DNA of 57,596 nt from Candidatus Omnitrophota bacterium (GTDB lineage: Bacteria > Omnitrophota > Gorgyraeia > Gorgyraeales > Gorgyraeaceae): contig JABMRA010000087.1 of the NCBI GenBank assembly GCA_013202925.1, positions 1 to 57,596 on the forward strand, read 5' to 3'. The position numbers and the translations under genes were made by a program. Each line of letters opens with the position of its first letter. Position 1 is the stretch's first letter. Shown in pieces: positions 22,628 through 57,596 of this stretch. The notes under the pieces were generated by a model that saw only the letters and a list, made by a program, of their open reading frames with translations, was not told the DNA's origin and did not search any database.

Positions 22628-22693
22628 AAAACCCCTATGCGTGCGACAAAAACCCCTATGCGTGTTGACAATCGAGGGTTTCTTTGTTATACT
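22628..22693 (+). promoter_or_regulatory. two 16-nt direct repeats abutting a sigma70-type promoter of the glycan/rSAM locus
   Basis: AAAACCCCTATGCGTG at 22628-22643 and 22649-22664, immediately followed by TTGACA (22665-22670), a 17-nt spacer and TGTTATACT (-10 at 22688-22693). ATG at 22705. Confidence 0.5.
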
Positions 22694-22704
22694 GGCAGGC
22701 GTCT

Positions 22705-23838
22705 ATGCGAGTGTGCCATGTTATAACAAAACCTGAACTGGGTGGGGCACAGCTTTCCACTCTTAATATCCTCTCCGGCCTTCCAAGAGATAGATACGAT
22801 ATTTCCGTTATTACCTCACCAAAAGGCATACTTAGCGCTGAATTTAGAGACCTAAAGGATGCAAAAGCCTTTTTCTCGCCATTTCTGACACGCCCTATAA
22901 ATATCCTGTCTGATATATTGGCATTCATACATATATTTCTTATATATAGAAGCAATAAATACGCAATAGTACATACGCATAGTTCAAAGGCCGGTATTAT
23001 CGGACGTCTGGCAGCTCGTCTTGCAGGCGTGCCTGTGATCATACACACAGTGCATGGCTGGTCTTTTAATGATTGCCAGGGCTGGGTCAGAAAACGGCTC
23101 TTTATGTCCCTGGAAAGGGCAATGGCGAGATTTACCACAAGGATCATATGTGTTTCCAAAAAGGACATGGAAACAGGATTGAAATATAAGATAGCAGGCC
23201 CGGATAAGTTTGTTCTAATAAAATACGGCATACCTCTTGCTGAATTCAGAAGATCATCGGTTGATCCATTGGTAAAGAAAAAGGAATTGGGCATTACCAA
23301 TAGCGGCCCTGTAATAGGGATGGTATCCTGCCTTAAGCCCCAGAAATCCCCCCTGGATTACATAAAGGCATGCATAAAGATTTATGAAAAGATGCCTGAT
23401 GTAAATTTCCTGCTGGTGGGGGACGGCGCATTGAGAAGCAAATGCGAAAAACTCCTAGCCCCTACGCCACTAAACGGAAGATTTATATTTACCGGATGGA
23501 GGAGGGATGTCTCGGAGATCCTGGATATCCTGGATGTGGCAGTCCTGACAAGTAAATGGGAAGGCATGCCTATTTCTGTTATAGAGGCGCTTTGTAAAGG
23601 TTGTCCTGTTGTTGCTACGAATGCAGGCGGTACCCCTGAACTTATCAAGGGCGGGGTCACAGGTTATGTTACCCAGCCTGGCACATATGAAGAAACAGCT
23701 GAAAAGGTATTAAGGATACTTGGGGATCCGCTCTCTTTCAATAATATGAAAAGGCAGGCGTCTTTATCCATAGACGAATCCTTCGGGGTAGATAGAATGG
23801 TAAACGAGACAGAAAATTTATACAGGAGGTTGGTATGA
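22705..23838 (+). CDS. glycosyltransferase family 4 (GT-B fold)
   Basis: MRVCHVITKPELGGAQ N-terminus and the C-terminal E-x7-E region SKWEGMPISVIEALCKGCPVVATNAGGTPELI. ATG at 22705 is preferred to the track start at 22684. Confidence 0.85.
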   Translation: MRVCHVITKPELGGAQLSTLNILSGLPRDRYDISVITSPKGILSAEFRDLKDAKAFFSPFLTRPINILSDILAFIHIFLIYRSNKYAIVHTHSSKAGIIGRLAARLAGVPVIIHTVHGWSFNDCQGWVRKRLFMSLERAMARFTTRIICVSKKDMETGLKYKIAGPDKFVLIKYGIPLAEFRRSSVDPLVKKKELGITNSGPVIGMVSCLKPQKSPLDYIKACIKIYEKMPDVNFLLVGDGALRSKCEKLLAPTPLNGRFIFTGWRRDVSEILDILDVAVLTSKWEGMPISVIEALCKGCPVVATNAGGTPELIKGGVTGYVTQPGTYEETAEKVLRILGDPLSFNNMKRQASLSIDESFGVDRMVNETENLYRRLV

Positions 23839-24833
23839 TTTACGCCTCGACATTTTTTATCGCCTTTCTTTTGGCGCTATTTTTATCGCCAGTCAGCGTC
23901 AAGATAAGCAAGCGCTTTAATATCTTCTCCAAGCCAAAAAAGGGAGAGACAGGCGGCAAGCCGTGCCTTGGGGGTATTGCTATATATATGGCCTTTATCG
24001 TGACTGTCCTCCTTATGGCCTTTTTTAAAGTAATACATGGCCCCGGGTTTGCAGGGTTGATAATCGCCTCAGGCATGATAGTTTTATTAGGGCTGATAGA
24101 TGACGCAAAGGACTTGAGCCCCCTTAAAAAGATAATAGTAGAGTTGATAGCAATAGGGGTGTTGATATTATTTGGCGTCTTTACCGGGATCTCATTCCTG
24201 CCGATATGGACGAATATCCTGATCACGCTTATATGGGTACTTTTTATAACCAATGCGTTTAATCTACTGGATATTGCGGACGGATTGACCTCGGGACTTG
24301 TGATCATTATTTCCCTGACACTATTGGTCATTTCACTGGTGAACAGGGATATCTTTTCAGCAATCGTTCTGGTCGCATTGCTCGGGTCGCATCTGGGATT
24401 TCTGAAATATAATTACCCGCCGGCAAGGATCTACATGGGCGATACGGGGAGCCTGTTTTCGGGATTCGTATTGGCAGCAGTGGCAATAAACATCAGTTAT
24501 GCGCCGCTCGAACGCCCTGTTGCCCTGATCACGCCGATACTCGCGATGAGCCTGCCTATATACGATACGCTTTTTTTGATAATAATGCGTATAAAAAAAG
24601 GCAAGCCGATTTTTAGCAAGACCAATGACCACTTTACATTGAGGCTGGTTACCATGGGGAATGGAGTGCGTAAAAGTATCTGGATCATGTATCTTTTCAG
24701 CATCTTTTTGGCAGTCTCGTCATTGATAGTGGCCTTTGGTCCCAACAGGACAGGTGTGGTTATGTTGATCGTCGTGGTTCTTGTGTTTATTCTAATGGGG
24801 AAGAAGGTCGGGATGGTCAAGGTAGAGGATTGA
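23835..24833 (+). CDS. WecA/MraY-family polyprenyl-phosphate sugar-1-phosphate transferase (initiating enzyme)
   Basis: About 10 TM helices, with the motifs NAFNLLDIADGL and MGDTGSLFSGF that are characteristic of this family. Confidence 0.85.
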   Translation: MIYASTFFIAFLLALFLSPVSVKISKRFNIFSKPKKGETGGKPCLGGIAIYMAFIVTVLLMAFFKVIHGPGFAGLIIASGMIVLLGLIDDAKDLSPLKKIIVELIAIGVLILFGVFTGISFLPIWTNILITLIWVLFITNAFNLLDIADGLTSGLVIIISLTLLVISLVNRDIFSAIVLVALLGSHLGFLKYNYPPARIYMGDTGSLFSGFVLAAVAINISYAPLERPVALITPILAMSLPIYDTLFLIIMRIKKGKPIFSKTNDHFTLRLVTMGNGVRKSIWIMYLFSIFLAVSSLIVAFGPNRTGVVMLIVVVLVFILMGKKVGMVKVED

Positions 24834-26167
24834 TGTATAAGAGACAAGAGACAAGAGACAAGAGACAAGGCGAAGTTGTTATTTTGGGCGCGGGCATGGC
24901 CGGCCTTAGCACGGCATACCACCTGCAGAACAATTATTCCCTGTATGAAAAAGAGGCAGAGCCGGGCGGAATGGCCAGGACTATAGATAAGGACGGCTAC
25001 AGATTCGACTATGACGGTCATCTCCTGCATTTTAGGGACGAATACGCATTTTCATTGATCAGCGATCTTCTGGACGGGAACCTTGCCCCTCACAAGCGCA
25101 ATTCCTGGATATACTCAAAAGGCAGCTATACGCGATATCCGTTCCAGGCGAATTTTTACGGCCTGCCAAAGGACGTAATAAAGGAGTGCCTCGTCGGCCT
25201 TATAAGGGCAAGGCTCAATCTGGTCAATGTCTATGGAAAAAGGGATCTGAATGGAAATTTTGACAACTGGATAAGGATGACCTTCGGAGAAGGCATAGCA
25301 GAGCACTTTATGCTGAGTTATAATAAAAAATTCTGGACCGTAGAACCAAAAGAGCTTGTGTGTGACTGGCTGGACGGATTTGTGCCGGTGCCGGCCATTG
25401 AGGACGTGGTCACAGGGGCCATATCGAGCAGCACAAAGCCATACGGCTACAACTCAAGATTCTGGTATCCTGTAAAAGGCGGCATATCCGAAGTGGTGGA
25501 TGGATTTTTGCAAAAGACCAGCAATCTTCACGTGAACAAAAAGGTGGTCACCATAGACCAGCACAGAAAAGAGATCGTGTTTGAGGACGGCACCATAAAA
25601 GGATTCAAACACCTGGTTAGTACAATACCATTGCCTGAACTGTGGAAGATTCTTGTAAACATCCCGGATAAGGTAAAAGAGGCCTTTTCAAGGCTCAGGC
25701 ATACCTCTATCTTTGTAGTGAATCTGGGCATCAAAAGAGATGACGTTACGGACAGGCATTGGGTGTATTATCCCGAGGAAAGCATAGCCTTTTACAGGAC
25801 AGGTTTTCCTACGAATTTTTCCATGGATGTGGCGCCTTCCAACAGGACATCTCTATATGCCGAGATATCTTATTCAGACAACAAAAAGATAGATAAGGAG
25901 AAGGCGATCAGGGATACTGTAAGGGATCTGAAGCTGCTGGGGATTATTTGCAGGGAGGACGAGATCGAGGTCTGTCAGCCCATAGATATCAAGTATGGCT
26001 ACGTGATCTATGATTCAAACAGGAAATCAGCAGTGCAGACCATAAAGAATTATCTACAGAGATTCGGCATCCACACTATAGGCAGATATGGAAGCTGGAG
26101 TTATATGTCAATGGAAGACGTGATCCTTGAAGGAAGGGAAATGGCGAGATGTCTACTTACATCTTAG
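24833..26167 (+). CDS. FAD-dependent oxidoreductase (UDP-galactopyranose mutase / amine-oxidase-like)
   Basis: Dinucleotide-binding VVILGAGMAGLSTAYHL and YEKEAEPGGMAR. TGATG overlap with the upstream gene. The 5' end carries a 7-nt tandem repeat. Confidence 0.7.
   Translation: MYKRQETRDKRQGEVVILGAGMAGLSTAYHLQNNYSLYEKEAEPGGMARTIDKDGYRFDYDGHLLHFRDEYAFSLISDLLDGNLAPHKRNSWIYSKGSYTRYPFQANFYGLPKDVIKECLVGLIRARLNLVNVYGKRDLNGNFDNWIRMTFGEGIAEHFMLSYNKKFWTVEPKELVCDWLDGFVPVPAIEDVVTGAISSSTKPYGYNSRFWYPVKGGISEVVDGFLQKTSNLHVNKKVVTIDQHRKEIVFEDGTIKGFKHLVSTIPLPELWKILVNIPDKVKEAFSRLRHTSIFVVNLGIKRDDVTDRHWVYYPEESIAFYRTGFPTNFSMDVAPSNRTSLYAEISYSDNKKIDKEKAIRDTVRDLKLLGIICREDEIEVCQPIDIKYGYVIYDSNRKSAVQTIKNYLQRFGIHTIGRYGSWSYMSMEDVILEGREMARCLLTS
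24839..24869 (+). repeat. heptanucleotide tandem repeat (GAGACAA x4, with partial flanking units) inside codons 3-12
   Basis: aaGAGACAAGAGACAAGAGACAAGAGACAAgg read directly from 24839-24870. The unit length is not a multiple of 3. Confidence 0.85.
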
Positions 26168-27963
26168 GGATTTCGTGTTTTTATCATGATAGTGCTGCGG
26201 CATTGATCAAAGACGGAGAGATAATCGCAGCAGCGCAGGAAGAGCGTTTTACGCGCAAAAAGCACGATTTCAATTTTCCGGTGAATGCATTGAAATACTG
26301 CCTGGAAGAGGGAGACATAAAGGCCAGGGATTTAGCGTTCATTGCATTTTACGACAAGCCGCTTTTGAAATTCGAGAGAATACTATTTACGTACCTTTCT
26401 TATGCACCTTCGGGCTTCAGGTCTTTTTGTAAGGCCATTCCCTTGTGGCTGAAGGAAAGGTTGTGGATGTCGCACTTGATAGCTGAGAAGTCGGGTTTCA
26501 AGGGCAAGATCTTGTTTACGGAACATCATGAGTCGCATGCAGCATCCTGTTTCTATCCTTCTCCTTTTAAAGAGGCCGCGATCCTTACGATGGATGGGGT
26601 AGGGGAATGGACCACCGCAAGTATCGGGATCGGTAAAGATAATGATTTTAATCTGCTCTACGAGATAAAATTCCCGCATTCCCTGGGGCTTTTATATTCC
26701 GCGTTTACGTATTATACGGGATTCAGGGTCAACTCAGCAGAATACAAGGTCATGGGCCTGGCGCCTTACGGCGAGCCAAAATACGCTGATCTGATCTTAA
26801 ATGAGCTCATGGACTTGAAAGAGGACGGCTCTTTTAAGCTGGATATGAAATATTTCAATTATTGCGCCGGGCTTACAATGACGAATAATAGATTTAATAG
26901 GCTATTTGGCGGACCACCAAGAAAACCTGAGACAAAGATCACCCAGAAGGAAATGGACCTGGCAAGGTCTGTCCAGGCAGTAACCGAAGAGGTAATGCTC
27001 AGGACAGCAAGGCATGTTTATAAGCTTACAGGTATGAAGAATCTTTGCCTGGCCGGAGGGGTGGCGTTGAACTGCGTGGCCAATGGCAGGATCTTGCGGG
27101 ATGGGCCTTTTGACAAGATATGGATACAACCAGCCGCAGGTGACGCAGGGGGCGCAATCGGGGCAGCGCTGAGGATATGGTATAGATATTTGGGCAATAA
27201 GCGTGATGCAGACAATACCAAGGATAAACAGAAAGGTTCTTATCTGGGTCCGGTTTATACCGATGATTATATCGAAGATTATTTAAAGAAGCACAATGGC
27301 CCTTATCAGAAATTTTCGCAAGATGAATTATTAAAAAGGACAGCAGGTTTTATTGCTGCCAACAAGGTAATCGGCTGGTTTCAGGGCAGGATGGAGTTTG
27401 GGCCCAGGGCATTGGGCGCAAGGAGCATAATAGGCGATGCCCGTTCGCCGGATATGCAGTCACGCATGAACCTCAAGATAAAATTCAGGGAGTCATTCAG
27501 GCCGTTCGCGCCCACGGTTTTATCAGAGAATGCAAAGGAATATTTTGAGATCAGCTGCGACAGCCCTTACATGCTTCTGGTGGCAAATGTCAAAAATGGC
27601 CACTTAAAGGCAAGACCGGATAAAGAACCAGGGGGCTTTGGTAGGTTGAAAATAATACGTTCTGATATCCCTGCTGTTACGCATGTTGACAATTCCGCAC
27701 GGATTCAGACCGTATCAAAAGACAGCGAAAACAATATGTATTACGGACTTTTAAAGGAGCTTTACAGTAAAACAGGCTGTCCTGTAACAATAAATACGTC
27801 CTTTAATGTGAGAGGCGAGCCAATAGTATGCACGCCTGAGGATGCCTATAGGTGCTTTATGCGCACTGACATGGACTATCTTGTAATGGGGAGCTTTATC
27901 CTGGACAAAAAGGCACAGCCACTGGAGAGGCACGAGACAAGACAGTACTTTGAGCTCGACTAG
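26149..27963 (+). CDS. carbamoyltransferase (NodU/CmcH family)
   Basis: MSTYILGISCFYHDSAAALIKDGEIIAAAQEERFTRKKHD is the canonical family N-terminus. About 600 aa with an internal HHESHAASCF. Confidence 0.9.
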   Translation: MSTYILGISCFYHDSAAALIKDGEIIAAAQEERFTRKKHDFNFPVNALKYCLEEGDIKARDLAFIAFYDKPLLKFERILFTYLSYAPSGFRSFCKAIPLWLKERLWMSHLIAEKSGFKGKILFTEHHESHAASCFYPSPFKEAAILTMDGVGEWTTASIGIGKDNDFNLLYEIKFPHSLGLLYSAFTYYTGFRVNSAEYKVMGLAPYGEPKYADLILNELMDLKEDGSFKLDMKYFNYCAGLTMTNNRFNRLFGGPPRKPETKITQKEMDLARSVQAVTEEVMLRTARHVYKLTGMKNLCLAGGVALNCVANGRILRDGPFDKIWIQPAAGDAGGAIGAALRIWYRYLGNKRDADNTKDKQKGSYLGPVYTDDYIEDYLKKHNGPYQKFSQDELLKRTAGFIAANKVIGWFQGRMEFGPRALGARSIIGDARSPDMQSRMNLKIKFRESFRPFAPTVLSENAKEYFEISCDSPYMLLVANVKNGHLKARPDKEPGGFGRLKIIRSDIPAVTHVDNSARIQTVSKDSENNMYYGLLKELYSKTGCPVTINTSFNVRGEPIVCTPEDAYRCFMRTDMDYLVMGSFILDKKAQPLERHETRQYFELD

Positions 27964-27967
27964 TAAT

Positions 27968-28032: not shown

Positions 28033-28038
28033 GAAACA

Positions 28039-28422
28039 ATGAGGCAAGAACTGAGAAGATTCGGGTTTAATCTAGGATTGGGCTTAAATATACTGGGATG
28101 CATCATGTTCTACAGGGGCAGGGGGCATTTTATATGGTTTACAGGCATTGGGTCTTTGAATCTGCTCCTTGCTATTCTGTGCCCGAAGGTATTAATACCT
28201 CTGAAGAAGGCCTTGGATCTTGTTATCCTTCTGGTCGGCCGCACAATAAACACGGTAAGTTTGACGATCGTCTTTTATTTGATATTCGCGCCTATCGGAA
28301 TCCTGCTGCGACTATTTGGCAGGGACCTGCTGCACCGGAGAATAGATAAGACAGCCGGTTCTTACTGGATCAAAAGGAAAGAGACGGCTTTTACACCGGA
28401 TTCTTACGAACGTATGGGTTGA
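28039..28422 (+). CDS. small membrane protein, SxtJ-like (commonly follows carbamoyltransferase genes)
   Basis: 127 aa with 3-4 TM helices, directly downstream of the carbamoyltransferase. The family call is from memory of gene context and general sequence character only. Confidence 0.45.
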   Translation: MRQELRRFGFNLGLGLNILGCIMFYRGRGHFIWFTGIGSLNLLLAILCPKVLIPLKKALDLVILLVGRTINTVSLTIVFYLIFAPIGILLRLFGRDLLHRRIDKTAGSYWIKRKETAFTPDSYERMG

Positions 28423-28429: not shown

Positions 28430-29254
28430 ATGGGAATAATAATGACCGCAATAAAAGACCTGATTAGTTACCGCCATTTAGTCTGGGACTTGGCTATAAA
28501 AGACATCAAGGTCCGCTATAGAAGCCCTGTTCTGGGTTTTTTGTGGGCAATCATTGTCCCCTTGGTCATGGTCTTTATCTATAAGTTTGTGTTTTCGAAT
28601 ATTATCCGGGCAGGCTTTGTGGAAAATTTCCCATTTTTTATATACCTGATGACCGCGATCTTTCCATGGACGTATTTTTCGTCTTCGGTCAACGCTGCCA
28701 CTGAAAGCATATGCAGCAACAGGGAATTGATAAAGAAGACGTATTTCCCGCGCCAGATCATACCGGTCTCCGTGGTATTGGCAGGCCTGATAAATTTTAT
28801 TCCTGCCTTGGTCGTTATGCTTATCATCCTTGCCTTTTTCAGGATACAGTTTACGATTTTAATCCTTTTGCTGCCGGTCATCCTTCTTGTTCAGACAATC
28901 TTTACGATCGGCCTTGCCCTTATTGTCTCCACCCTGCAGGTTATTTTGCGGGATGTGAAGTATATGGTGGAATTGATAATTATGGCATGGCTCTTTCTTA
29001 GTCCAGGTTTTTATTCATTGGCGATGGTGTTGAATATATCTGAAATATTCTTTAAGTGCTATATCCTTAATCCTTTTGTGGGATTTTTCTCCCTTTATCG
29101 CATAGCGCTTCTTAAGGGATTTAGCGATACGCTGCCGCCACAGGTCAATATCTATGGCCTGTCGTGCTGGCTGATCATAGTTTCTGTTATAGTCTTGGTG
29201 GTTGGCCTTTTGGTCTTTAAGAAATTCGAACAACGTTTTTCTGATTTAATTTAG
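28430..29254 (+). CDS. wzm: ABC-2 type polysaccharide export permease (Wzm/TagG-like)
   Basis: 274 aa with 6 TM helices. The N-terminal LISYRHLVWDLAIKDIKVRYRSPVLGFLWAIIVPL is the canonical ABC-2 permease signature. Confidence 0.8.
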   Translation: MGIIMTAIKDLISYRHLVWDLAIKDIKVRYRSPVLGFLWAIIVPLVMVFIYKFVFSNIIRAGFVENFPFFIYLMTAIFPWTYFSSSVNAATESICSNRELIKKTYFPRQIIPVSVVLAGLINFIPALVVMLIILAFFRIQFTILILLLPVILLVQTIFTIGLALIVSTLQVILRDVKYMVELIIMAWLFLSPGFYSLAMVLNISEIFFKCYILNPFVGFFSLYRIALLKGFSDTLPPQVNIYGLSCWLIIVSVIVLVVGLLVFKKFEQRFSDLI

Positions 29255-30987: not shown

Positions 30988-30988
30988 A

Positions 30989-38805: not shown

Positions 38806-39850
38806 CGAGAAACAAAAAAAGATTATTCAGGCCCTGAGTAAGCGCGATCTAAAGAAAAAACTGGAGAATTTTGTCCTCGTAGAAGAAGAAAAGGCAAGAA
38901 GAGAGGAGATCGTCTCTGGTTATCCCTACTGGCTCATAATCGATCCGGTTAATTTCTGCAACCTCAAATGCCCCTTTTGTCCTACCGGGCAGGAGAGGGG
39001 GTCGCGAAAGAGGGCAATACTTTCTTTTGACAATTTCAGGAAGATAATAGATGAGATAGGCCCTTACCTGATCCATATAGATTTCTGTAATTGGGGCGAG
39101 CCTTTTCTGAACAGGCAATTGCCGGAAATGATCAAATATGCCGAGAGGCATTATGTTGATACCAAGGTCGACACCAACCTTAATCTTCTCACTGAGGAAG
39201 ACGCTGAGAAAATAGTCCTCTCCGGACTTGATAAGATCATCGTATCCATAGACGGTATAACGCCCGAGACCTATTCTCGGTACAGGGTAGGAGGGGATTT
39301 TGATAAGGTCATGGAAAATCTCGGGATACTGGTCAAGAAGAAAAAGGAGCTCAAAAAGGCCACGCCTTATATCACATGGCAGTTTTTGGTGTTCAGGCAT
39401 AATGAGCATGAGGTAGAAGAGGCGAAAAAGATAGGTTGTGACTTAGGCGTAGACCACGTAGGTATTACCAAGGCATTTATTGGCGAAAAAGATTGGATCC
39501 CTTTAAACGAGGAGCTAAGCAATTACAGGCAGGAAGGACTAGGCAGCGGCTACACATCAGACGGCCTCAAGAAACCGCAGGGTACAATGTGCAACTGGCC
39601 CTGGGAGGCAATAACAATGAATCCCAATGGCTCTGTTTCGCCCTGCTGCTCTGTTGAAGACGAGAAAGATGACTTTGGCAATATCTTCCAGCAGCCATTC
39701 AGAGAGGTGTGGAATAATGAGAAATACAGGATGGCAAGGAGATATATCAAGGATAACGCGACGCAGGTTACGGGTGAGAATATCTGTGTAAACTGCGGGC
39801 ATTCAGGGATGATCAATATAGATATACTTTCGTGCCACAGTTTATTTTAG
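38771..39850 (+). CDS. radical SAM / SPASM domain protein
   Basis: DPVNFCNLKCPFCPTG (first Cys at nt 38957), NWGEPFL, and C-terminal SPASM-like CNWPWEAITMNPNGSVSPCCS...CVNCGHSG. GTG start at 38771 lies 7 nt after GGAGGGG. ATG at 38777 is the alternative. Confidence 0.8.
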   Translation: MTMLESAKQGLDEKQKKIIQALSKRDLKKKLENFVLVEEEKARREEIVSGYPYWLIIDPVNFCNLKCPFCPTGQERGSRKRAILSFDNFRKIIDEIGPYLIHIDFCNWGEPFLNRQLPEMIKYAERHYVDTKVDTNLNLLTEEDAEKIVLSGLDKIIVSIDGITPETYSRYRVGGDFDKVMENLGILVKKKKELKKATPYITWQFLVFRHNEHEVEEAKKIGCDLGVDHVGITKAFIGEKDWIPLNEELSNYRQEGLGSGYTSDGLKKPQGTMCNWPWEAITMNPNGSVSPCCSVEDEKDDFGNIFQQPFREVWNNEKYRMARRYIKDNATQVTGENICVNCGHSGMINIDILSCHSLF

Positions 39851-50191: not shown

Positions 50192-51640
50192 ATGTGTGAA
50201 GCAATTTCTCCTCGTGTCTTTTTCACGTGGGATATTCATTATAAATGTAATTATTACTGCAGTTATTGCTTTTTGCATTTTGAGCCTGAAACGGCAAATA
50301 TTGAAGCAGTTTATTTAGAGGTCGAAGAGTGGGTTAAAATCTGGACAGATATTTATAAAAGATATGGTCCTTGCCATATCTTGGTGACCGGAGGAGAGCC
50401 GTTTACTTACCCGAATTTTATGGATTTGGTTTCTTCTTTATCAGAGATGCATACGTTTGGTTTTTCGACAAACCTTTCATGGGATATCAACGAGTTTATA
50501 AAAAAGGTGAACAGGCTTAAGGTAGAGATAGAGGCAAGTTTTCACCCGGAATTTATAGGCGCCGAAGAGTTTTTGAAGAAAATAAAATTATTAAAAAAGA
50601 AGGATTATTTGGTGAGCGCCACGGTTGTGGCATATCCTCTCTTGCTGGATAAGATTATAAAGTATAAAGAGATATTTAAAAAAGAAGGCGTCAGGTTGAA
50701 CCTCTATCCTTACAGGGGGCCGCATGATTCCAGGAATTATCCGGATGCATACTCAGAGTCAGAGAGGCAGCTCTTGAAAAAACTGGGTCTTGAGATCGGC
50801 ATAAAGGCCAGCAGGGGACTTATGGATGTATATAAATTAACGCAGGATGGCAATGCTCAGGAGAAAAAACAAGAAGGCAAGATCTGTAGGATGGGACAGA
50901 GATACGCAAAGATCATCCCGAACGGGGAGGTCTACAGGTGCTGTGCAGCTGTAAATAAAAAATGGGGAGATCTGGGCAATGTCATAAAAAAGACATTTGA
51001 ACTGCTTGATAGGCCTGGACTCTGTCCAGACCCCATGAACTGCACCTGTTATAAATCTATGGTCATGGGAGAAGAAGATAGATGGCTGGGGTATTGGAAG
51101 ATCCCCAATGACTTTAGGGCCGAAAAAAAGATGAGGGATGAATTAGGGGTCGCCAAGAAACTTCGTGACACTGGGAAAATAGAAGAGGCTGTTGATAAGA
51201 TAAACCAAATCTTGAAGACGCGGCCCGGGAACGTCAGGGCACTTACGTTACTCGGAGAAGTTTATTTACAAAAAAAAGATTTTGTAACTGCCGGTAATAC
51301 ATTGCAAGAGGCCTTAAAAAATAATTCTAACCCTGATGACGCCTCATGGATTTACAGGACGCTGGGCAGGTTTTATTTTGAGTCAGCCATGAATAATAAC
51401 GATACAAAAAAAGAAGGGTTCGGTCAATCTCTGGATTGCCTGGAAAAGGCAATAAGATTCGCAGATAAATCCAATAATGTCGCAGATAAAGCGTGGGCAC
51501 ACTATGAGATTGCCACTGTATATCATAATAAAAAGAATTACCCCAAGGCTCAGGAGAATCTAAAGATGGCCCTTGAATATGAGCCCGAAAACGGGCATTT
51601 TAGAGAACTTCGTACATTGTTGGAAAAGGACGCAAGGTGA
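50192..51640 (+). CDS. compact radical-SAM module (module 5) fused to C-terminal TPR repeats
   Basis: FTWDIHYKCNYYCSYC (nt 50246), TGGEPFTYP, ICRMGQRYAKIIPNGEVYRCC..CPDPMNCTC. TPR-like repeats from about aa 320 (LTLLGEVYLQKKDFVTAGNTLQEAL, AHYEIATVYHNKKNYPKAQENLKMAL). Confidence 0.8.
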   Translation: MCEAISPRVFFTWDIHYKCNYYCSYCFLHFEPETANIEAVYLEVEEWVKIWTDIYKRYGPCHILVTGGEPFTYPNFMDLVSSLSEMHTFGFSTNLSWDINEFIKKVNRLKVEIEASFHPEFIGAEEFLKKIKLLKKKDYLVSATVVAYPLLLDKIIKYKEIFKKEGVRLNLYPYRGPHDSRNYPDAYSESERQLLKKLGLEIGIKASRGLMDVYKLTQDGNAQEKKQEGKICRMGQRYAKIIPNGEVYRCCAAVNKKWGDLGNVIKKTFELLDRPGLCPDPMNCTCYKSMVMGEEDRWLGYWKIPNDFRAEKKMRDELGVAKKLRDTGKIEEAVDKINQILKTRPGNVRALTLLGEVYLQKKDFVTAGNTLQEALKNNSNPDDASWIYRTLGRFYFESAMNNNDTKKEGFGQSLDCLEKAIRFADKSNNVADKAWAHYEIATVYHNKKNYPKAQENLKMALEYEPENGHFRELRTLLEKDAR

Positions 51641-51686
51641 GAGAGTCAAGCAGTGAAAGGCTGGGCTATTGCTGCGGGAGACTAAG

Positions 51687-53582
51687 ATGTTGACAGAGAA
51701 AATTTGTTTTTGCTGGAATATAAATTACCGGTGTAATTATCGATGTCCGTATTGTTTCTTTTATAACAGATGGGATAGGGTTGTAAAAGATAACGGAAAT
51801 TTTCCAGCCGAGGACTGGATAAAGAGCTGGCGCCGCATTTATGATATTTATGGAAGCGCAAAGATAGAGACAGCAGGGGGGGAGCCGTTTACTTTTCCTT
51901 CTTTCGTGAGATGCATAAATGAGATATGTAAATTGCACAGCCTTAGGATTACAACAAATCTTTCCTGTTCAACAGAGATTCTGAAGACGATTATCGGACA
52001 AAACAGTCCCGAGAGACTAAAATGGAACATAACCTTCCATCCGAGTTTCGCTAATGTCGATGATTTTTTAAAAAAGGCCCTGCTTTTGAAGCGCAACAAA
52101 TTTGAAGTTTTGACAATGTATGTTGGTTATCCCCCTCAGTTAAAGATGATGCCGCATTTTAGGAGTATATTTCAAGAAAACGGGATCACCTTTTTTGCAC
52201 AGGCATTTCAGGGAGAACATAACAGGATAGCCTATCCTCAGGGTTATACAGAAGAGGAAAGGCAGCTGATGGGCGATCTCAAGAAGGACGATTGTCACGG
52301 AGGGTTAAAGAGACTAATAGAAAATCAATTGCTTAAAAAACAAACAAAGGGCAAATTATGTCTTGCCGGATCGAAATATGCATTTGTTGATTCCACGGGA
52401 GAGGTATACAAATGTTCCCGTGAAAGAAAGAATTCAATGGGGAATTTTCTGGAGCATGATTTTAGATTATATGATCGGCCGCTGCCGTGCGAGTTTGAAT
52501 ATTGCCCTTGTGAATTTACATGGCTGGTTGAAGAAGAGGCGATTCGAGAAAAGCAAGACATGAAGGACCAGGATAAAATCGAGGCGGATCTGCCTTTGAC
52601 GGAATTATCCGGTAAAGCAGCAGTTTGTCAGACGCAGGATAAATATCCTGCCCCTGGTCGAGTCTATTGGTGCTGGGATATACATAATGCATGTAATTAT
52701 AAGTGCCCATATTGCTGGCTTAACACTCCTCACGAAGATGCCCCAAAGGACGTTCATCCTTATCCCGGGATTGATAAACTGGTAAAGATCTGGGCCGATA
52801 TTTATAAGAAATATGGAAGATGCCATATTCATATTTCCGGAGGCGAACCTTCTATCTACCCGTCTTTCTTTGAGTTGATAGGTAAACTTTCGCAATTGCA
52901 TTATGTAGAATTCGACACCAACCTATCTTTTGACCCAGTTGATTTAGTAAGGAATACAGAAGAAGGCCGTAGATTAAAGATAGGGGCTACATTGCACCCA
53001 GAATTTACTGACTTAAATACCTTCTTTTCGAAAGTGCTCCAGTTAAAGGGCGGCGGTTTTAGAATCGGGATGACGTGCGTAGGTTATCCGCCACACTTGA
53101 AAGATATTCGCAGATATAAAGATATATGCGATAAGAATAACGTTGAATTTAATATCCAGGCCTTTAGAGGGGCTTTTAATGGCAAGGAATATCCAACAGC
53201 GTATGACGATGCAGAAAAAGAACTTATTGGCATACAGGCTGAAGATGTTACCAGTCGGATATTAGATTATCACATCAGTGAGAGAGACAAGAAAAAGGAA
53301 AAAGTCCGGAGGTTATGCAGAATGGGTCAAATGGGCGCCAAGATCTATCCGAACGGAGATGTTTTTAGATGTTGTATGCCTGAGGACGATCATAGGATAG
53401 GCAATATTTTCAATGACGATGATTTTAGGTTATTTGATGGACCAAGATATTGTGAGAAGAGTCCGTGTCCTTGTTGGAGGGCCATGATTATTGGCAAGGA
53501 AGATGATTGGCAGCATTACTGGTATCGCATGGAAACAGATAGTAGGTATTGTGATAGAAATTTACAAACTAAGCAAGATTGA
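51687..53582 (+). CDS. tandem didomain protein of the compact radical-SAM module, modules 6 and 7
   Basis: CWNINYRCNYRCPYC (nt 51732) and CWDIHNACNYKCPYC (nt 52692). LCLAGSKYAFVDSTGEVYKC..CEFEYCPC and LCRMGQMGAKIYPNGDVFRCC..CEKSPCPC. ATG at 51687 is preferred to TTG at 51669. Confidence 0.8.
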   Translation: MLTEKICFCWNINYRCNYRCPYCFFYNRWDRVVKDNGNFPAEDWIKSWRRIYDIYGSAKIETAGGEPFTFPSFVRCINEICKLHSLRITTNLSCSTEILKTIIGQNSPERLKWNITFHPSFANVDDFLKKALLLKRNKFEVLTMYVGYPPQLKMMPHFRSIFQENGITFFAQAFQGEHNRIAYPQGYTEEERQLMGDLKKDDCHGGLKRLIENQLLKKQTKGKLCLAGSKYAFVDSTGEVYKCSRERKNSMGNFLEHDFRLYDRPLPCEFEYCPCEFTWLVEEEAIREKQDMKDQDKIEADLPLTELSGKAAVCQTQDKYPAPGRVYWCWDIHNACNYKCPYCWLNTPHEDAPKDVHPYPGIDKLVKIWADIYKKYGRCHIHISGGEPSIYPSFFELIGKLSQLHYVEFDTNLSFDPVDLVRNTEEGRRLKIGATLHPEFTDLNTFFSKVLQLKGGGFRIGMTCVGYPPHLKDIRRYKDICDKNNVEFNIQAFRGAFNGKEYPTAYDDAEKELIGIQAEDVTSRILDYHISERDKKKEKVRRLCRMGQMGAKIYPNGDVFRCCMPEDDHRIGNIFNDDDFRLFDGPRYCEKSPCPCWRAMIIGKEDDWQHYWYRMETDSRYCDRNLQTKQD

Positions 53583-53627: not shown

Positions 53628-54440
53628 TTGAAATTTACTTTTGGCTGGGATTTATGTTATACATGCAATTACCGCTGTCCGTATTGTGGCATTTGGGAAA
53701 ACAGGTCAGATAGCGATCTTTTTCTGTCTGCCGAAGAATGGGGTGCGATTTGGGACAGGGTCCATGCCAAGTATGGAAGCTGCCACATCTACATGTCAGG
53801 GGGCGAACCGTCTTTTTACCCTGGTTTTTATGACCTAGCGTTAAGATTGGCGCAGAGGCATTCGATAGAGATATGCACCAACCTGTCCTGGGATATAGAT
53901 AGATTGGTGCCGCAGATCCCGGCTGGCACATTAAAGATAGCCGCGACCTTTCATCCAACGTTTGCCAGGTTTGAGGAATTTTTTGAAAATGCGGTAAGGG
54001 TAAAGGAGTATCTACCTAATTCGCAGATATATTATGTGGCGCATCCAGGCCAGATCAGGGAAATGCCTGAAAGGAGCAGGAGATTAAAAGAGCAAGGCGT
54101 AGATCTTATACCATTACCTCTTAGGGGAGACGGATATGTGCTTAACTCAGACGAAGAAAAAAGGATAGTTGAGGAGGTAAGTCCTTACAAAGGCGAGAAG
54201 ATAGAATATCAGTTACAGAGGATCTCGCCTAAAGGCAAGCTGTGCAGGGCAGGCCAGTTTTACGCTGTTATCAGGGCAAATGGCGCGGTGGACCGCTGCA
54301 GTCAGCATAGAAACGGAGGGCTTGGAAATTTTTTGTCAGAGGAGTTTGGTTTATTCGACAAACCTGTTCTTTGCGAGAAGGACTACTGTCCAATAGAATC
54401 ACAATGGATAATAAATGAACAAAGAATTAGAACTAACTGA
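53628..54440 (+). CDS. single compact radical-SAM module (module 8)
   Basis: TTG start 6 nt after AAGGAG. FGWDLCYTCNYRCPYC (nt 53664), SGGEPSFYP, LCRAGQFYAVIRANGAVDRC..CEKDYCP. Confidence 0.75.
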   Translation: MKFTFGWDLCYTCNYRCPYCGIWENRSDSDLFLSAEEWGAIWDRVHAKYGSCHIYMSGGEPSFYPGFYDLALRLAQRHSIEICTNLSWDIDRLVPQIPAGTLKIAATFHPTFARFEEFFENAVRVKEYLPNSQIYYVAHPGQIREMPERSRRLKEQGVDLIPLPLRGDGYVLNSDEEKRIVEEVSPYKGEKIEYQLQRISPKGKLCRAGQFYAVIRANGAVDRCSQHRNGGLGNFLSEEFGLFDKPVLCEKDYCPIESQWIINEQRIRTN

Positions 54441-55014
54441 AAACAAAATCAGGAAAGTAATTGATGAACTAAGGCAATATTATAGAAGTCTAGAATTCGG
54501 CCCTGTTAGCGATGAGGAAGGCCGCATCTTGCAGATATTGATTGAAATTTCAAATGCTAAAGATGTTTTAGAAATAGGTACATCACTCGGGGTTTCTTCG
54601 CTTTGGATGACCTTAGGTCTTTTAAAGACAAAGGGGAAATTGATAACCTTTGAAGCTATGCCTGAACATGCGCAGTTTGCAAGACAAAATTTTGAAAAAG
54701 CCGGCGTACAGGATATTATTACTCTTATAGAGAGAGACGCTGTATATTTTAGTCCATTATTAAAAGACAAATTTGATTTCATATTTATGGACGGACTCGA
54801 AAGAGAATATTTAATGTTCTTTAATCTTTTTTTCCCTTTGTTGAAGGAAGGAGGCATTATTGTTGCTCATGATGTTATAACAAAGGCGAATGATGCGCAG
54901 GATTACATTGAAACATTAAACAAAGATAGGCGTGTTACTAATTGTATTATCAGAGGCCCTGAGATAGCAACGGGCATGCTTATAACTTATAAGAATAAGG
55001 AATTGACAGGTTAA
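54415..55014 (+). CDS. class I SAM-dependent O-methyltransferase (caffeoyl-CoA OMT / Methyltransf_3-like)
   Basis: VLEIGTSLGVSSLWM (motif I), FDFIFMDGLEREY, and GGIIVAHDV. 26-nt overlap with the upstream gene. Confidence 0.75.
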   Translation: MNKELELTENKIRKVIDELRQYYRSLEFGPVSDEEGRILQILIEISNAKDVLEIGTSLGVSSLWMTLGLLKTKGKLITFEAMPEHAQFARQNFEKAGVQDIITLIERDAVYFSPLLKDKFDFIFMDGLEREYLMFFNLFFPLLKEGGIIVAHDVITKANDAQDYIETLNKDRRVTNCIIRGPEIATGMLITYKNKELTG

Positions 55015-55020
55015 AACAGG

Positions 55021-57596
55021 ATGGGCAAAAGGCAGACAGGTAATTTACAAGTAGCTTTTCCGCGAAAAACCCCTCCTTACAGAGTTTTTTTCACATGGGA
55101 GATAACATACAATTGTAACTATCGCTGCACTTATTGCCATGCCCCAAAACCAGGGAATCCTGATACAAGAAAAACGACTTCTCTGGACGCAAAGAAATGG
55201 ATAGGGATATGGGACGATGTGTATAAGAATTACGGGGCATGTTTTATTCTTATAAGCGGCGGGGAGCCCTTTGCCTACCCGTCTTTTATGGATCTGGTAA
55301 CGCAGCTTCATAAAAAACACATAATCGAACTTTGCACAAATCTGGAATGGGATGTGAAGCCATTTGTAAAAAATATGGATCCAAAAAGGATAAAGGTCGC
55401 GACCAGCCTGCACCCGGAGTTTGCCGATCTGGACAGGTTTTTGCATAGGCTGAAACTTCTGAAGGACAATGGCTTCAGGACGCATGTGAATTTTGTCCCA
55501 TGGCCCCCGTTTTTAGAAAGAATGGCGGAATACAAGGAAAAGGTGGAGGCGCTGGGCGTTCAATTTATATTGCAGCCTTTTATAGGAGATTATGAGGGCA
55601 GGAGATATCCTCAGGGTTACACTGAATCCGAAAGAGAATATTTTAAGATATTCAAGGATTCCTGTAATATAAGCACGCTCGATTTCAAGACGACCAACGA
55701 ATCCAACAAGAAAGGCAAACTCTGCAGAATGGGACAGAATTACGCATTTATTCATCCTGACGGGGCTGCAGACAGGTGCTGTAAGGATCACAGCGTAGCA
55801 TTGGGTAATGTGATAGACAAGACATTTAGGTTGCTGGAAGAGCCGGCTGCCTGCACAATCGAAGAATGCAACTGCTGGCGGTGCATGCTCGTAGAGAAAG
55901 AACCTGAATGGGTAAATCACTGGGGCTGGGCCGAGATAGAAGACATAGAGCCAGTCGCTATAAAATCAGAACCCTCCGGAGCGAGGCAGGGCGAGGTTTT
56001 GGATGGAAGGGATTCTGGTGCGAGGGTGGCGCTGGTACAGCTGCCGCCATGGGGAGTCTTTGATCCCCCTAACGCGCTTGCGCAGATGTCCAGCTATATA
56101 AAGCGGGACGGTCACAAGGCGGCAGTGTTTGATGTCAATGTCGGATTGTATAATAGCAAAAGAGAGCAGTATAAGACAGTATGGGCCATAGAGCAGAGCG
56201 GATTCTGGCATAATCAGGAGAATGTTTTAAAGTTCTTCAATGATAACAGCGAGACAATCAATGATTTCATCCAAAGGATTATTGCTGTTGAGCCAGAAGT
56301 CGTCGGCCTTTCCGTAAGCTCGGCTTCTTTGCACTTTGCGATGGAGTTTGTTAAGAAGATAAAAGAGAAGAGGCCTCAGGTAAAGATTGTTTTTGGAGGG
56401 GCCATGTTTTTTGTCCAGGTGGATATGGAATCCATTTTAAATAATGGCTGTGTGGACATAATTATTCTCGGGGAAGGAGAAGAATCCTTTTCCGAATTGC
56501 TGCAGATATTAAGGGATGGCAGGGACCTTGGATTATGCAGGGGGATATGCTTTAAAAAAGGCGGCAAGATAGTGAATACAGGGCCAAGGGAATACATGAA
56601 AAATCTGGATGAACTTCCGTTTCTGGATTTCAGTGATTTGCCTCTGGACAGATATGACCCGCCAGGGCATCTGGGCAGACATATTTCCCTTATGACAAGC
56701 CGCGGGTGCATACAGAATTGCGTGTTCTGTGGCCCAAAGGCCTACTGGCAGGGATTCAGGACAATGAGCGGTAAGCGCATCTATGATGAGATAAGGTACC
56801 ATATTGCCTTAAACCCAGATATAGAGCATATAGAATTCCTTGATCTGCTTTTTAATGGAAGCATTAAGACCTTAAATGACTTCTGTGATTTAATGATCAG
56901 CGACCCGCCTAAGCCGGGCTTAAAATGGCACGTCAATGCGATCATCAGGCCAGAGATGACTTTGGAGGTATTTCAGAAGATGAAGCGTGCCGGGTGCCAT
57001 CACATAACTTATGGCATTGAATCTGGCTCTCAAAGGGTCTTGGGCCTGATGAAAAAACGTTATAAGGTAAAAGATGCGGATGATGTCCTTGAGAATAATC
57101 ATAAGGCAGGCATAGAGGTTACCTGCAATTTTATGTTTGGCTTCCCCGGAGAGACAGAGGAGGATTTTCAAGAGACCCTTGATTTTTTAAGGCGCAATTC
57201 GAGATATATCACAACCGCCTATCCCAGTCGCACGTATTGCACAGTAGAGCCTTTTAGTTACATGGAAAAACAGATGGAAGAGTTTGATATGGTGCCGAAT
57301 AAGGATTATCCTATCTATTGGGAGTCGCGGGACAGCCGCAATAATTATCCTGAGAGGCTCAGGAGGTGCGAGGTGTTTTCCAGCCTGGCCTTATCCCTGG
57401 ACGTAGCAGTTGGGAGCGGGCTTCAGACCTCGGTGGAATTGGATAAATGGTTCAGTCTCGGTTTTTACTATCTTGCCAAAAAGGACAGCGGGTCAGCCAA
57501 AAGGTCTTTCCAGAATTACCTGAAACTGGACCCCAAAAATGAGGTTATAAATAATAAGATTCACGAGCTTGATAATGCGCTCAATGCAGACAGGCC
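55021..57596 (+). CDS. fusion of compact radical-SAM module 9 and a B12-binding radical SAM domain, 3'-truncated by the window edge (not in the supplied ORF track)
   Basis: My own translation from ATG 55021 has no stop to nt 57596. MGKRQTGNLQVAFPRKTPPYRVFFTWEITYNCNYRCTYC (Cys at nt 55114) ...LCRMGQNYAFIHPDGAADRCC..CTIEECNC.. linker ..VALVQLPPWGVFDPPNALAQMSSYIKRDGHKAAVFDVNV...SRGCIQNCVFC (Cys at nt 56707)...YGIESGSQRV...LGFYYLAKKDSGSAKRSF. The minus-strand track ORFs here are antisense artefacts. Confidence 0.8.
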   Translation, partial: MGKRQTGNLQVAFPRKTPPYRVFFTWEITYNCNYRCTYCHAPKPGNPDTRKTTSLDAKKWIGIWDDVYKNYGACFILISGGEPFAYPSFMDLVTQLHKKHIIELCTNLEWDVKPFVKNMDPKRIKVATSLHPEFADLDRFLHRLKLLKDNGFRTHVNFVPWPPFLERMAEYKEKVEALGVQFILQPFIGDYEGRRYPQGYTESEREYFKIFKDSCNISTLDFKTTNESNKKGKLCRMGQNYAFIHPDGAADRCCKDHSVALGNVIDKTFRLLEEPAACTIEECNCWRCMLVEKEPEWVNHWGWAEIEDIEPVAIKSEPSGARQGEVLDGRDSGARVALVQLPPWGVFDPPNALAQMSSYIKRDGHKAAVFDVNVGLYNSKREQYKTVWAIEQSGFWHNQENVLKFFNDNSETINDFIQRIIAVEPEVVGLSVSSASLHFAMEFVKKIKEKRPQVKIVFGGAMFFVQVDMESILNNGCVDIIILGEGEESFSELLQILRDGRDLGLCRGICFKKGGKIVNTGPREYMKNLDELPFLDFSDLPLDRYDPPGHLGRHISLMTSRGCIQNCVFCGPKAYWQGFRTMSGKRIYDEIRYHIALNPDIEHIEFLDLLFNGSIKTLNDFCDLMISDPPKPGLKWHVNAIIRPEMTLEVFQKMKRAGCHHITYGIESGSQRVLGLMKKRYKVKDADDVLENNHKAGIEVTCNFMFGFPGETEEDFQETLDFLRRNSRYITTAYPSRTYCTVEPFSYMEKQMEEFDMVPNKDYPIYWESRDSRNNYPERLRRCEVFSSLALSLDVAVGSGLQTSVELDKWFSLGFYYLAKKDSGSAKRSFQNYLKLDPKNEVINNKIHELDNALNADR

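Follow-up and report, generated by a model that had tools for sequence, protein, structure and literature searches.

We analysed a stretch of 57,596 bp of Candidatus Omnitrophota DNA, hereafter the window, which is the entire contig JABMRA010000087.1, and in particular the gene locus that occupies its last 35 kb. The locus consists of 21 open reading frames (ORFs), g1 to g21, all on the plus strand between position 22684 and the end of the window at 57596, the last gene, g21, being cut by the contig end. A co-directional 35-kb locus had been proposed in a sequence-only reading of the same DNA, and it is borne out. The data point to a Wzm/Wzt assembly line, dependent on an ATP-binding cassette (ABC) transporter, for a furanose-containing surface glycan, with a large tailoring stage made of radical S-adenosylmethionine (rSAM) enzymes; we assign to this reading a probability of about 0.68.

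Fusions between glycosyltransferases and radical-SAM enzymes, and conserved gene order

The sequence-only reading had argued, from the fusion of glycosyltransferase (GT) and rSAM domains in one protein, that a glycan or glycolipid is the rSAM substrate. This is supported by the fusions themselves, by a synteny with Wzm/Wzt that recurs in relatives and by the absence of peptide machinery downstream of the locus in four relatives. The fusion is kept in about 40 orthologous Omnitrophota clusters, in the form GT2-GT2-GT4::SPASM rSAMs. In 11 proteins of 1530-1656 aa resembling the giant protein g8, the GT2-GT2-GT4 domains run directly into a small rSAM module at the C-terminus, which scores 246-288 bits on a profile where other rSAMs score <45 bits.

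The genomic contexts of eleven relatives (designated by L numbers below) were fetched from JGI, NCBI, ENA and Logan assemblies and compared by BLASTP. This search for the same gene order, which had been suggested as a check, showed that the core order, composed of a gene resembling UDP-galactopyranose mutase (UGM), Wzm, Wzt, the GT giant, B12::SPASM, B12(::SPASM), Methyltransf_24-SPASM and small-rSAM doubles, recurs at 35-70% identity in independent Omnitrophota assemblies. The UGM-like, Wzm, Wzt, GT giant and rSAM array genes follow each other in L006, L007 and L008, while a reduced locus in L012 presents Wzm, Wzt and a GT::small-rSAM giant without the UGM-like gene; the Wzm/Wzt linkage is found in all four relatives sampled on that side and the UGM-like gene in three of them. 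In L006, L007 and L008 the g6 orthologues (40-63% identity) adjoin Wzt, and the g3 orthologue lies directly upstream of Wzm (L006 and L008) or one GT2 gene away (L007).

The rSAM genes are themselves joined in different ways. The g9 and g10 orthologues form a single protein of 900-911 aa in L003, L005, L006, L007 and L008, and those of g12 and g13 one of 924-926 aa in L003, L005 and L008. O-methyltransferase::small-rSAM fusions are present in P0247, P0250 and P0251, and L006 has a small module joined to a g13-like domain. Considering that the points of fusion and fission vary between genomes, these enzymes probably work together. Moreover, the covalent joining of GTs and rSAMs, the shifts in fusion points and the overlaps at gene junctions argue for one molecule on which both the rSAMs and the polymerase act.

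Organization and integrity of the locus

The locus proteins were submitted to Pfam, NCBIfam and PDB profile searches, with the following assignments.

22665..22693, plus strand: match to a sigma-70-like promoter upstream of g1 (TTGACA-17-TATACT, TG present); 11/12 consensus
22684..23838, plus strand: g1, GT4 glycosyltransferase (PF00534 E 2e-31, PF13439 E 1e-19); likely start ATG 22705
23835..24833, plus strand: g2, polyprenyl-phosphate sugar-1-phosphate transferase of the WecA/MraY family, initiating enzyme (PF00953 E 4e-33)
24830..26167, plus strand: g3, amine-oxidase-like flavoprotein, UGM homologue of the eukaryote type (PDB 4dsg/3uka)
26149..27963, plus strand: g4, carbamoyltransferase, NodU/CmcH type (Carbam_trans_N E 2e-103, Carbam_trans_C E 4e-71)
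28039..28422, plus strand: g5, small SxtJ-like membrane protein with hydrophobic segments (PF19588 E 7e-5, slightly under the cut-off)
28430..29254, plus strand: g6, Wzm ABC-2 permease (PF01061 E 1e-12)
29260..30987, plus strand: g7, Wzt ATPase with two C-terminal carbohydrate-binding Wzt_C domains (PF00005, PF14524)
30980..37213, plus strand: g8, 2077-aa GT2/GT2/GT4/rSAM-SPASM/rSAM-SPASM protein (Pfam, NCBIfam, hydrophobicity, repeats)
g8, residues 1-260: GT2
g8, residues ~300-525: repeat-rich coiled coil
g8, residues 559-592: hydrophobic anchor
g8, residues 610-840: GT2
g8, residues 935-1305: GT4
g8, after GT4: rSAM/SPASM 1 (Cys box at nt 35084) and rSAM/SPASM 2 (Cys box at nt 36257)
37210..38805, plus strand: g9, B12-binding rSAM with C-terminal TPR
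38771..39850, plus strand: g10, rSAM/SPASM of subfamily B, partner of g9 (PF04055 E 6e-18, SPASM E 3e-13)
39979..41676, plus strand: g11, GT-C (PMT_2/ArnT-like) membrane glycosyltransferase with ~9 transmembrane segments (PF13231 E 3e-13)
41769..43340, plus strand: g12, B12-binding rSAM with TPR (PF04055 E 1e-22, PF02310 39 bits)
43341..44468, plus strand: g13, rSAM/SPASM of subfamily A, in the same frame as g12
44472..46460, plus strand: g14, Methyltransf_24 fused to rSAM/SPASM of subfamily A; orthologues in L005 and L008
46457..48190, plus strand: g15, two small twitch-type rSAM modules, m1 and m2
48212..50107, plus strand: g16, two small rSAM modules, m3 and m4
50192..51640, plus strand: g17, small rSAM module m5 with C-terminal TPR
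51669..53582, plus strand: g18, two small rSAM modules, m6 and m7
53628..54440, plus strand: g19, single small rSAM module m8 (270 aa), with an orthologue clade of its own
54415..55014, plus strand: g20, class I O-methyltransferase, Methyltransf_3 (PF01596 E 5e-26)
55024..57596, plus strand: g21, small rSAM module m9 and B12-binding rSAM, cut by the contig end

Each of the domains named in the sequence-only reading was recovered by Pfam, NCBIfam or PDB, the rSAM domain of g14 and the second one of g8 more weakly. The reading had also located 17 CxxxCxxC boxes, and a regular-expression scan gives exactly this number, with the first Cys codons at the same coordinates: 35084, 36257, 37900, 38957, 42444, 43503, 45447, 46514, 47408, 48287, 49217, 50246, 51732, 52692, 53664, 55114 and 56707.

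The junctions between neighbouring ORFs span -35 to +128 nt (overlaps of 4-35 nt, gaps of 0-128 nt), the two widest gaps being those on either side of the GT-C gene g11. Overlaps of 4 nt occur at four junctions, as ATGA at g1/g2, g8/g9 and g14/g15 and as TTGA at g2/g3. The promoter that had been placed at 22665-22693 is the best-scoring match in the region, with 11 of 12 consensus positions, and is a consensus match only; such matches are not more numerous in the region than in shuffled sequence. As the site overlaps the listed TTG start of g1, the ATG at 22705 is the likelier true start.

An assembly chimera, a possibility that had been raised, was rejected. No GC break is present at the domain boundaries of the locus, whose GC minima are 0.33 over g11 and 0.35 at 44-47 kb, and the locus is not a chimera because independent assemblies reproduce its shared backbone order, g9-g10, g12-g13, g14, g15, g16. 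The closest relative also keeps the order g16, g17, g19, g21; the positions of g11, g18 and g20 are seen in this window only, and an exact protein look-up of g20 gave one match, a Logan contig of 2.4 kb. The 22 kb upstream are occupied by housekeeping genes, among them those for type IV pilus parts, RsmE, DnaG and RpoD, and the locus is therefore chromosomal.

The same upstream region presents a second, smaller group of glycan and rSAM genes: a PMT_2 GT-C with TPR (4012-5721), a TPR protein, a GT2 (7728-8693), a methyltransferase (8614-9327), a B12-rSAM (9383-10825), another methyltransferase (15999-16964) and a B12-rSAM (17188-18513) that is 33-34% identical to g9 and g12. A CT398-like coiled-coil/zinc-ribbon protein followed by an RNase H-like (RVT_3) protein is encoded at 19274-20423, between the housekeeping genes and the locus.

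Glycan assembly and export genes

The features of a Wzm/Wzt pathway found in the locus are Wzm next to Wzt, the Wzt_C domains, a PF00953 initiator, and two GT2 domains and one GT4 domain in g8. The export ATPase g7 matches PF14524 in two stretches with 123.8 bits, compared to a cut-off of 30.4 (E 7e-36), and its best PDB matches, 8dku/7k2t (E 3e-70), extend over residues 37-375 with the C-terminal domain included; these ABC transporter chains are presumably the Aquifex aeolicus O-antigen Wzm-Wzt entries. The sole NCBIfam match of the permease g6 is the galactan Wzm family, with 49 bits, under the equivalog cut-off.

The putative initiating enzyme g2 presents multiple hydrophobic segments and matches PF00953 with 115 bits, and it fails the WecA equivalog TIGR02380 (78 bits for a cut-off of 326). 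For the glycosyltransferase g1 the top NCBIfam match is TIGR03088, below its cut-off. The g3 protein aligns with the UGMs of T. cruzi and A. fumigatus (PDB 4dsg/3uka) with an E value of 2e-45 across residues 15-426, which implies that g3 would supply a furanose nucleotide sugar and that the product may contain a furanose. The carbamoyltransferase g4 has an orthologue of 47% identity in L010, and SxtJ-like proteins such as g5 are the usual partners of carbamoyltransferases.

The g11 gene has a GC content of 0.33, and the spacers on either side of it (within 39851-41768), with GC contents of 0.26 and 0.20, are the only long very AT-rich ones in the locus. Relatives have, at the corresponding place between g10 and g12, either no gene or a Methyltransf_24 gene or a GDSL-TPR gene. 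This slot looks like a cassette insertion site.

The giant protein g8

We counted about 44 close relatives of g8, and those that bear a name come nearly all from Omnitrophota. The second rSAM domain of g8 is backed by NCBIfam and SPASM matches and corresponds to a separate rSAM gene in L008.

The coiled-coil segment comprises ~230 residues, is repeat-rich and poor in Pro and Gly, and shows internal repeats at the DNA level. Direct repeats of 50-61 nt with 72-89% identity and periods of 126-210 nt lie at 32127-32534. In the terminator-ruler-polymerase layout of WbbB and WbdD/WbdA, a coiled coil sets a GT domain apart from the polymerase GTs; the coiled coil between the GT domains of g8 recalls these ruler proteins, the resemblance being in layout only. 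If the coiled coil were a ruler, a change in repeat number could alter its length.

The hydrophobic stretch of g8 is a single one, of 34 residues, and contains proline. A single transmembrane helix that splits the GT domains across the membrane is unlikely, as the domains on both sides need cytoplasmic donors, and the stretch more plausibly forms a re-entrant anchor.

Radical-SAM subfamilies

By sequence identity the rSAM domains sort into five subfamilies.

Small modules: nine, with 30-42% mutual identity
B12-rSAM with TPR: g9, g12 and the second domain of g21 (g21b), 37-52% identity
SPASM-A: second g8 rSAM domain, g13 and the C-terminus of g14, 37-56% identity
SPASM-B: g10
First g8 rSAM domain: a subfamily of its own

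The proteins g9, g12 and g21b appear to be built as class B rSAM enzymes, with an N-terminal B12-binding domain followed by the rSAM core. The B12-binding family PF02310 is matched above its cut-off of 32.1 bits by g12 (39.4) and g21b (51.2) and below it by g9 (27.3). The best PDB match of g12 is 9ccb, listed as MgmA (E 3e-18). For g14, PF04055 gives no match, and its rSAM domain was called from the CxxxCxxC box, a SPASM score of 19.8 bits (cut-off 21.5), a TIGR04317 match and 56% identity to g13. PF13186 (SPASM) matches are reported among the locus proteins.

The C-terminal halves of g13 and g14 (43923-44423 and 45912-46412) share 73-84% DNA identity over ~490 nt at a spacing of 1989 nt, which indicates a probable, fairly recent duplication or gene conversion within the locus. 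At the g12/g13 junction (43338-43343) the two genes are in frame and are parted only by a TAG directly followed by ATG, inside a variable linker, while the g9/g10 overlap (38771-38805) lies in different frames. These splits could represent true fissions of genes within variable linkers or, in the case of g9/g10, possibly a frameshift.

A scan for hydrophobic segments detected none in g9, g15 and g21, and only the single anchor in g8. Apart from that anchor these proteins are therefore cytoplasmic.

The array of small twitch-type modules

The small modules of g15 to g19 and g21 comprise ~270-300 residues. Common to them are a W-x5-C-N-x2-C-x-Y-C box, which is invariant, a GGE motif and, towards the C-terminus, four cysteines. 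The positions invariant in nine of nine modules are C20, C24, C27, GGE68-70, C214, C232, C258 and C263. The C-terminal cysteines would fit a twitch or partial-SPASM auxiliary cluster, and the small modules are assigned, from these motifs, to the SPASM/twitch subclass of rSAM enzymes. For g15, 306 homologues were retrieved at E <= 1e-5, and those with a name come nearly all from Omnitrophota. An AlphaFold2 model of g15 built with 92 homologues is confident, with a predicted local distance difference test (pLDDT) score of 88.5, and presents two modules that are independent of each other, with a disordered linker between them. The complete orthologues of g21 (1118-1167 aa) have the layout small::B12::small, so the window loses a tenth small module, which would make an eighteenth rSAM domain.

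Searched against 1.84 billion proteins, a profile of the small module retrieved 708 representatives of clusters at 50% identity (E <= 1e-30). Among the named families, NF038073 (STM4011 family) gives each module its highest score and aligns over almost its entire 278-position profile; membership fails, with ~60-76 bits per module and 61-129 bits per protein (129 for a two-module protein) compared to a cut-off of 200. The small modules of Omnitrophota form a family of their own.

In a neighbour-joining tree of 53 small modules, m1, m2, m8 and m9 each have an orthologue clade across genomes. These clades, together with the mutual identity of 30-42%, show that the paralogues are old and individually retained, and a recent tandem amplification of one rSAM gene was rejected on the same grounds. 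The array nevertheless changes in composition: in the closest relative (83-90% identity) neither g18 nor g20 is present, and four additional rSAM genes are. Such turnover is of the kind expected of a variable surface-glycan locus.

Absence of peptide machinery in the locus and downstream of it in four relatives

A leader-peptide precursor and a peptidase-containing exporter immediately downstream had been named as the signs of a peptide that is made on the ribosome and modified after translation (RiPP). They were sought in orthologous loci, and neither was found downstream of the g21 orthologues of four relatives. Within 5.5-10 kb downstream in these four, there is no precursor peptide, PqqD or RiPP recognition element (RRE) gene, leader peptidase, C39 exporter or Nif11/NHLP gene. 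All four have further rSAM genes there, and three of the four have GT9, GT2 and GT4 genes.

L009, downstream: sulfatase-family gene, B12::small rSAM, aldo-keto reductase; no glycosyltransferase in the 5.5 kb to the contig end
L010, downstream: TPR and GDSL proteins, carbamoyltransferase with small membrane partners, ~350-aa protein, rSAM-SPASM, GT9, GT2, GT4
L011, downstream: 349-aa protein, rSAM-SPASM, small rSAM, GT9, GT2, GT4
L003, downstream: 352-aa protein, rSAM-SPASM, GT2, GT4, GH5, GT9, GT2

The small ORFs of L010 are carbamoyltransferase partners of the DUF5989/SxtJ type, and the M6 peptidase of L002 is encoded on its own, 3 kb beyond the array. The ~350-aa protein, which is without a Pfam match, is encoded immediately before a 355-357-aa rSAM-SPASM gene in L003 (16047-17105), L010 (18493-19560) and L011 (13403-14452).

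In the locus itself, no intergenic gap contains a plausible precursor-sized ORF, a result that leaves room for a precursor acting in trans. Pfam gave no PqqD/RRE (PF05402) match in the 21 proteins, a search that divergent RREs could escape. In the small modules and in g10 and g13, the distance between the N-terminus (or start of the module) and the first cluster cysteine is 13-63 residues, too little room for an N-terminal RRE. Likewise, no leader peptidase or peptidase-containing exporter was found by Pfam among the locus proteins or in the downstream stretches of the four relatives.

Related arrays outside Omnitrophota

A scan of GTDB genomes with g21 returned a single locus, L002, from an Endomicrobiales metagenome-assembled genome (CAWCFT010000013.1). 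Its positions 1-13324 hold alternating B12-rSAM and small-rSAM genes that are 41-57% identical to the Omnitrophota genes and, being in a different phylum, suggest a horizontal transfer. In Ignavibacteriales (L013, JGI 3300007351), a region at 1214-18198 encodes a 2486-aa rSAM/GT2/GT4 giant, an rSAM, a Methyltransf_24 and a GT4 beside two flagellin genes, FliS and FliD, and it looks like a flagellin-glycosylation island containing rSAM enzymes. The Ignavibacteriales giant and the Endomicrobiales array together suggest that glycan-linked rSAMs may extend beyond Omnitrophota.

Evidence against the glycan reading and alternative explanations

Several observations weigh against a glycan assembly line with an rSAM tailoring stage. 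We infer the co-transcription of the locus from gene spacing only. Pfam detects no Wzy_C (ligase, WaaL) match among the window proteins; in favour of the glycan reading, this O-antigen-ligase family, which covers both WaaL ligases and O-oligosaccharyltransferases, is encoded immediately upstream in L007 and L008 and nearby in L012. No rSAM domain of the locus reaches any curated NCBIfam cut-off, and the best named match of the B12 enzymes is a RiPP C-methyltransferase family, TIGR03975 (g9 150.8, g12 161.2 and g21 152.7 bits), although membership fails, as the cut-off is 281.85. The top neighbours of the small module, SkfB, SuiB and anSME, act on peptides, as does EpeE, another fold neighbour. 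Finally, in the 23 kb available for L002 only the rSAM array is in view.

Considering these points, the main alternative is a heavily modified, proteusin-like RiPP whose peptide is encoded elsewhere, the GTs glycosylating it or merely being its neighbours. A high rSAM density is typical of proteusins; the named NCBIfam families that g9, g12 and g21b match best are RiPP C-methyltransferases, TIGR03975 and ApyD, the TPR domains could bind peptides, and L012 presents, ~6 kb from its glycan locus, a PqqD/ScmC/rSAM cassette. This cassette (19515-24872), with NTP_transf_5, PqqD, an ABC ATPase and permease, ScmC and an rSAM/SPASM, is a separate, RiPP-like one. SkfB, SuiB and anSME also lead both the PDB sequence matches and the fold matches of the small module. 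However, PDB profile and Foldseek searches (the latter with the AlphaFold2 model) return generic SPASM/twitch neighbours only, with identities <=20%, and the sugar- or nucleotide-acting BlsE, SpeY, viperin and MoaA score close to the peptide enzymes. As the neighbours are of both kinds, the fold does not settle the substrate. The NCBIfam names correspond to scores of 150-161 compared to a cut-off of 282, and the precursor-sized ORFs, PqqD/RRE matches, N-termini long enough for an RRE, and downstream leader peptidase, C39 exporter and Nif11/NHLP genes expected of a peptide pathway were not found in the searches described above. Furthermore, the rSAMs are covalently fused to polymerase-type GTs, in a gene order that recurs with Wzm/Wzt in the four relatives sampled and with the UGM-like gene in three. 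We therefore regard a RiPP as unlikely.

The tailored molecule could also be a lipid, namely the polyprenyl carrier, a glycolipid anchor or a ladderane-, hopanoid- or tetraether-like membrane lipid for which the glycan genes supply the head group only. Weak matches to HpnJ (143 bits), to the ladderane-associated B12-rSAM TIGR04072 (70-78 bits), to HpnR and to Tes are in line with it, as is a weak match of the small-module profile to 7tol, the synthase of glycerol dialkyl glycerol tetraether (GDGT) and macrocyclic archaeol (E 0.0017), and surveys of biosynthetic gene clusters have reported 'ladderane-like' clusters in Omnitrophota (PMC9902471). These family matches are nevertheless far under the cut-offs (577, 360 and 450), Pfam shows no genes of fatty-acid, isoprenoid or glycerol-ether synthesis in the locus, the fusion partners are GT2/GT4 polymerase-type domains and sugar-type methyltransferases, and Wzt bears carbohydrate-binding domains, so that we consider lipid tailoring improbable. 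We hold it very unlikely, finally, that two unrelated neighbours lie side by side, a standard O-antigen export locus and an independent rSAM pathway for the maturation of a cofactor or metalloenzyme or of a sulfatase. This would agree with the best matches of SPASM-A, the 'tungsten cofactor oxidoreductase rSAM maturase' and 'metalloenzyme maturase' families, with the L002 array without glycan genes in view, with anSME as a fold neighbour and with the sulfatase-family gene located after the rSAM genes of L009 and L012. But GT::rSAM fusions in about 40 clusters are hard to explain by adjacency, the 4-nt overlap g8/g9 crosses the GT-to-rSAM boundary, the order is kept across the identity range of 35-70%, and GTs are interleaved in or placed after the array (g11 here; GT2/GT4/GT9 in L003, L007, L010 and L011).

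Enzymes of the anSME type, with rSAM and SPASM domains, mature sulfatases. The sulfatase-family protein mentioned above is soluble (PF00884, ~455 aa) and is encoded directly after rSAM genes at 13396-14775 in L009 and at 15031-16398 in L012; in the minimal locus of L012 the order is Wzm, Wzt, giant and sulfatase-family gene, followed ~3 kb on, beyond a transposase, by Wzy_C.

Proposed pathway

The glycan assembly line with an rSAM tailoring stage could operate as follows. The WecA-family protein g2 would prime polyprenyl phosphate at the cytoplasmic face, and g1 and g8 would extend and probably cap the chain, with the furanose donor from g3 among the donors. The chain or its sugar donors would then be modified in the cytoplasm by the five rSAM subfamilies, that is by the two SPASM domains of g8, three pairs of B12-rSAM and SPASM-rSAM, and nine to ten small modules. 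By analogy with known enzymes, the B12 and SPASM pairs would most likely carry out C-methylation of unactivated carbons plus a second radical step, and the SPASM/twitch enzymes may use H-atom abstraction chemistry, for example in oxidation, epimerisation, dehydration or C-C/C-S coupling. The conventional methyl- and carbamoyl-transferases would act at this cytoplasmic tailoring stage too. The carbohydrate-binding domains of Wzt would recognise the finished terminus, Wzm/Wzt would export the polymer, and the GT-C g11 may decorate it in the periplasm. The domain identities, the gene order with its conservation between genomes and the fusions of domains are shown by the data; from them we infer the rSAM substrate, the stage at which the enzymes act, their individual reactions and the final acceptor, lipid A-core or protein.

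ABC-dependent pathways complete the entire polymer in the cytoplasm, which is the sole compartment where the oxygen-sensitive and reductant-dependent rSAMs can work. The cytoplasmic location of the scanned rSAMs fits a pathway that finishes its polymer before export. The rSAMs may act on the polymer, growing or finished, on nucleotide-sugar donors or on the lipid carrier. No classical nucleotide-sugar dehydratase, epimerase or aminotransferase gene is found in the locus, and this leaves room for an action of the rSAMs on nucleotide-sugar donors. A more specific version, which we put forward tentatively and at somewhat less than even odds, is that the lipid-linked glycan backbone is rewritten during or after polymerisation by rSAMs that C-methylate, epimerise, oxidise or cross-link it before export, in a carbohydrate counterpart of proteusin maturation performed by a hitherto unrecognised family of tandem twitch-type modules physically coupled to the polymerase.

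If true, this locus would define a class of chemistry new to the surface glycans of bacteria, with large-scale functionalisation of non-activated C-H bonds of sugars, and a large unannotated rSAM family that spans the phylum (the 708 small-module representatives at 50% identity) would gain a function. It would also bear on the cell-surface biology of Omnitrophota, whose members are widespread, uncultivated, very small and possibly dependent on hosts. Gene cluster miners could plausibly mistake such rSAM-dense loci for RiPP or 'ladderane-like' clusters.

Comparison with known systems

To our knowledge, rSAMs are normally absent from Wzm/Wzt loci or limited to a single one. The literature that we searched, non-exhaustively, yielded no counter-example of rSAM arrays in Wzm/Wzt loci, and it yielded no description of this locus or of an rSAM stage in polysaccharide loci, the coverage of subscription journals being partial. 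As far as we know, the rSAM chemistry of carbohydrates is known almost only as single enzymes in small-molecule antibiotic pathways, and radical tailoring at the polymer level is known for peptides (RiPPs) and not for polysaccharides. For the STM4011 family, whose profile is matched almost entirely by the small modules and which differs in that they score ~60-76 bits per module, under 200, no functional literature was found.

The closest comparators for glycan assembly are the ABC-dependent pathways of E. coli O9a (WbdA/WbdD), Klebsiella O2a galactan (wzm-wzt-wbbM-glf-wbbN-wbbO), Klebsiella O12/Raoultella WbbB and the mycobacterial galactan Wzm-Wzt. The locus shares with them a WecA-family initiator, a multidomain GT2/GT4 polymerisation in the cytoplasm, a UGM-like protein, and Wzm with a carbohydrate-binding Wzt. 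It differs from them by at least 17 rSAM domains, some of which are fused to the polymerase, by three B12-dependent enzymes and by the doubled Wzt_C, and has neither dehydratase, epimerase or aminotransferase genes nor, in the window, a ligase.

The sugar-acting rSAM enzymes BtrN, SpeY, BlsE, DesII, AprD4, GenK and NeoN and the nucleotide-acting viperin and MoaA resemble the small modules, which have an rSAM core and a C-terminal Cys-rich auxiliary motif and no N-terminal RRE. These enzymes, however, show identities of at most 20% and TM-scores of ~0.45-0.6 and occur singly in small-molecule pathways, whereas here nine to ten tandem paralogues are found in a polysaccharide export locus.

In the same way, the proteusin clusters, such as that of polytheonamide (PoyB/C/D), use many rSAMs in series on one polymer and combine enzymes like the class B C-methyltransferases with SPASM/twitch types. 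In contrast with them, the locus is without precursor, leader, RRE or protease, and its enzymes are fused to GTs and syntenic with Wzm/Wzt. From these features of its genes, the polymer tailored here is most likely a glycan.

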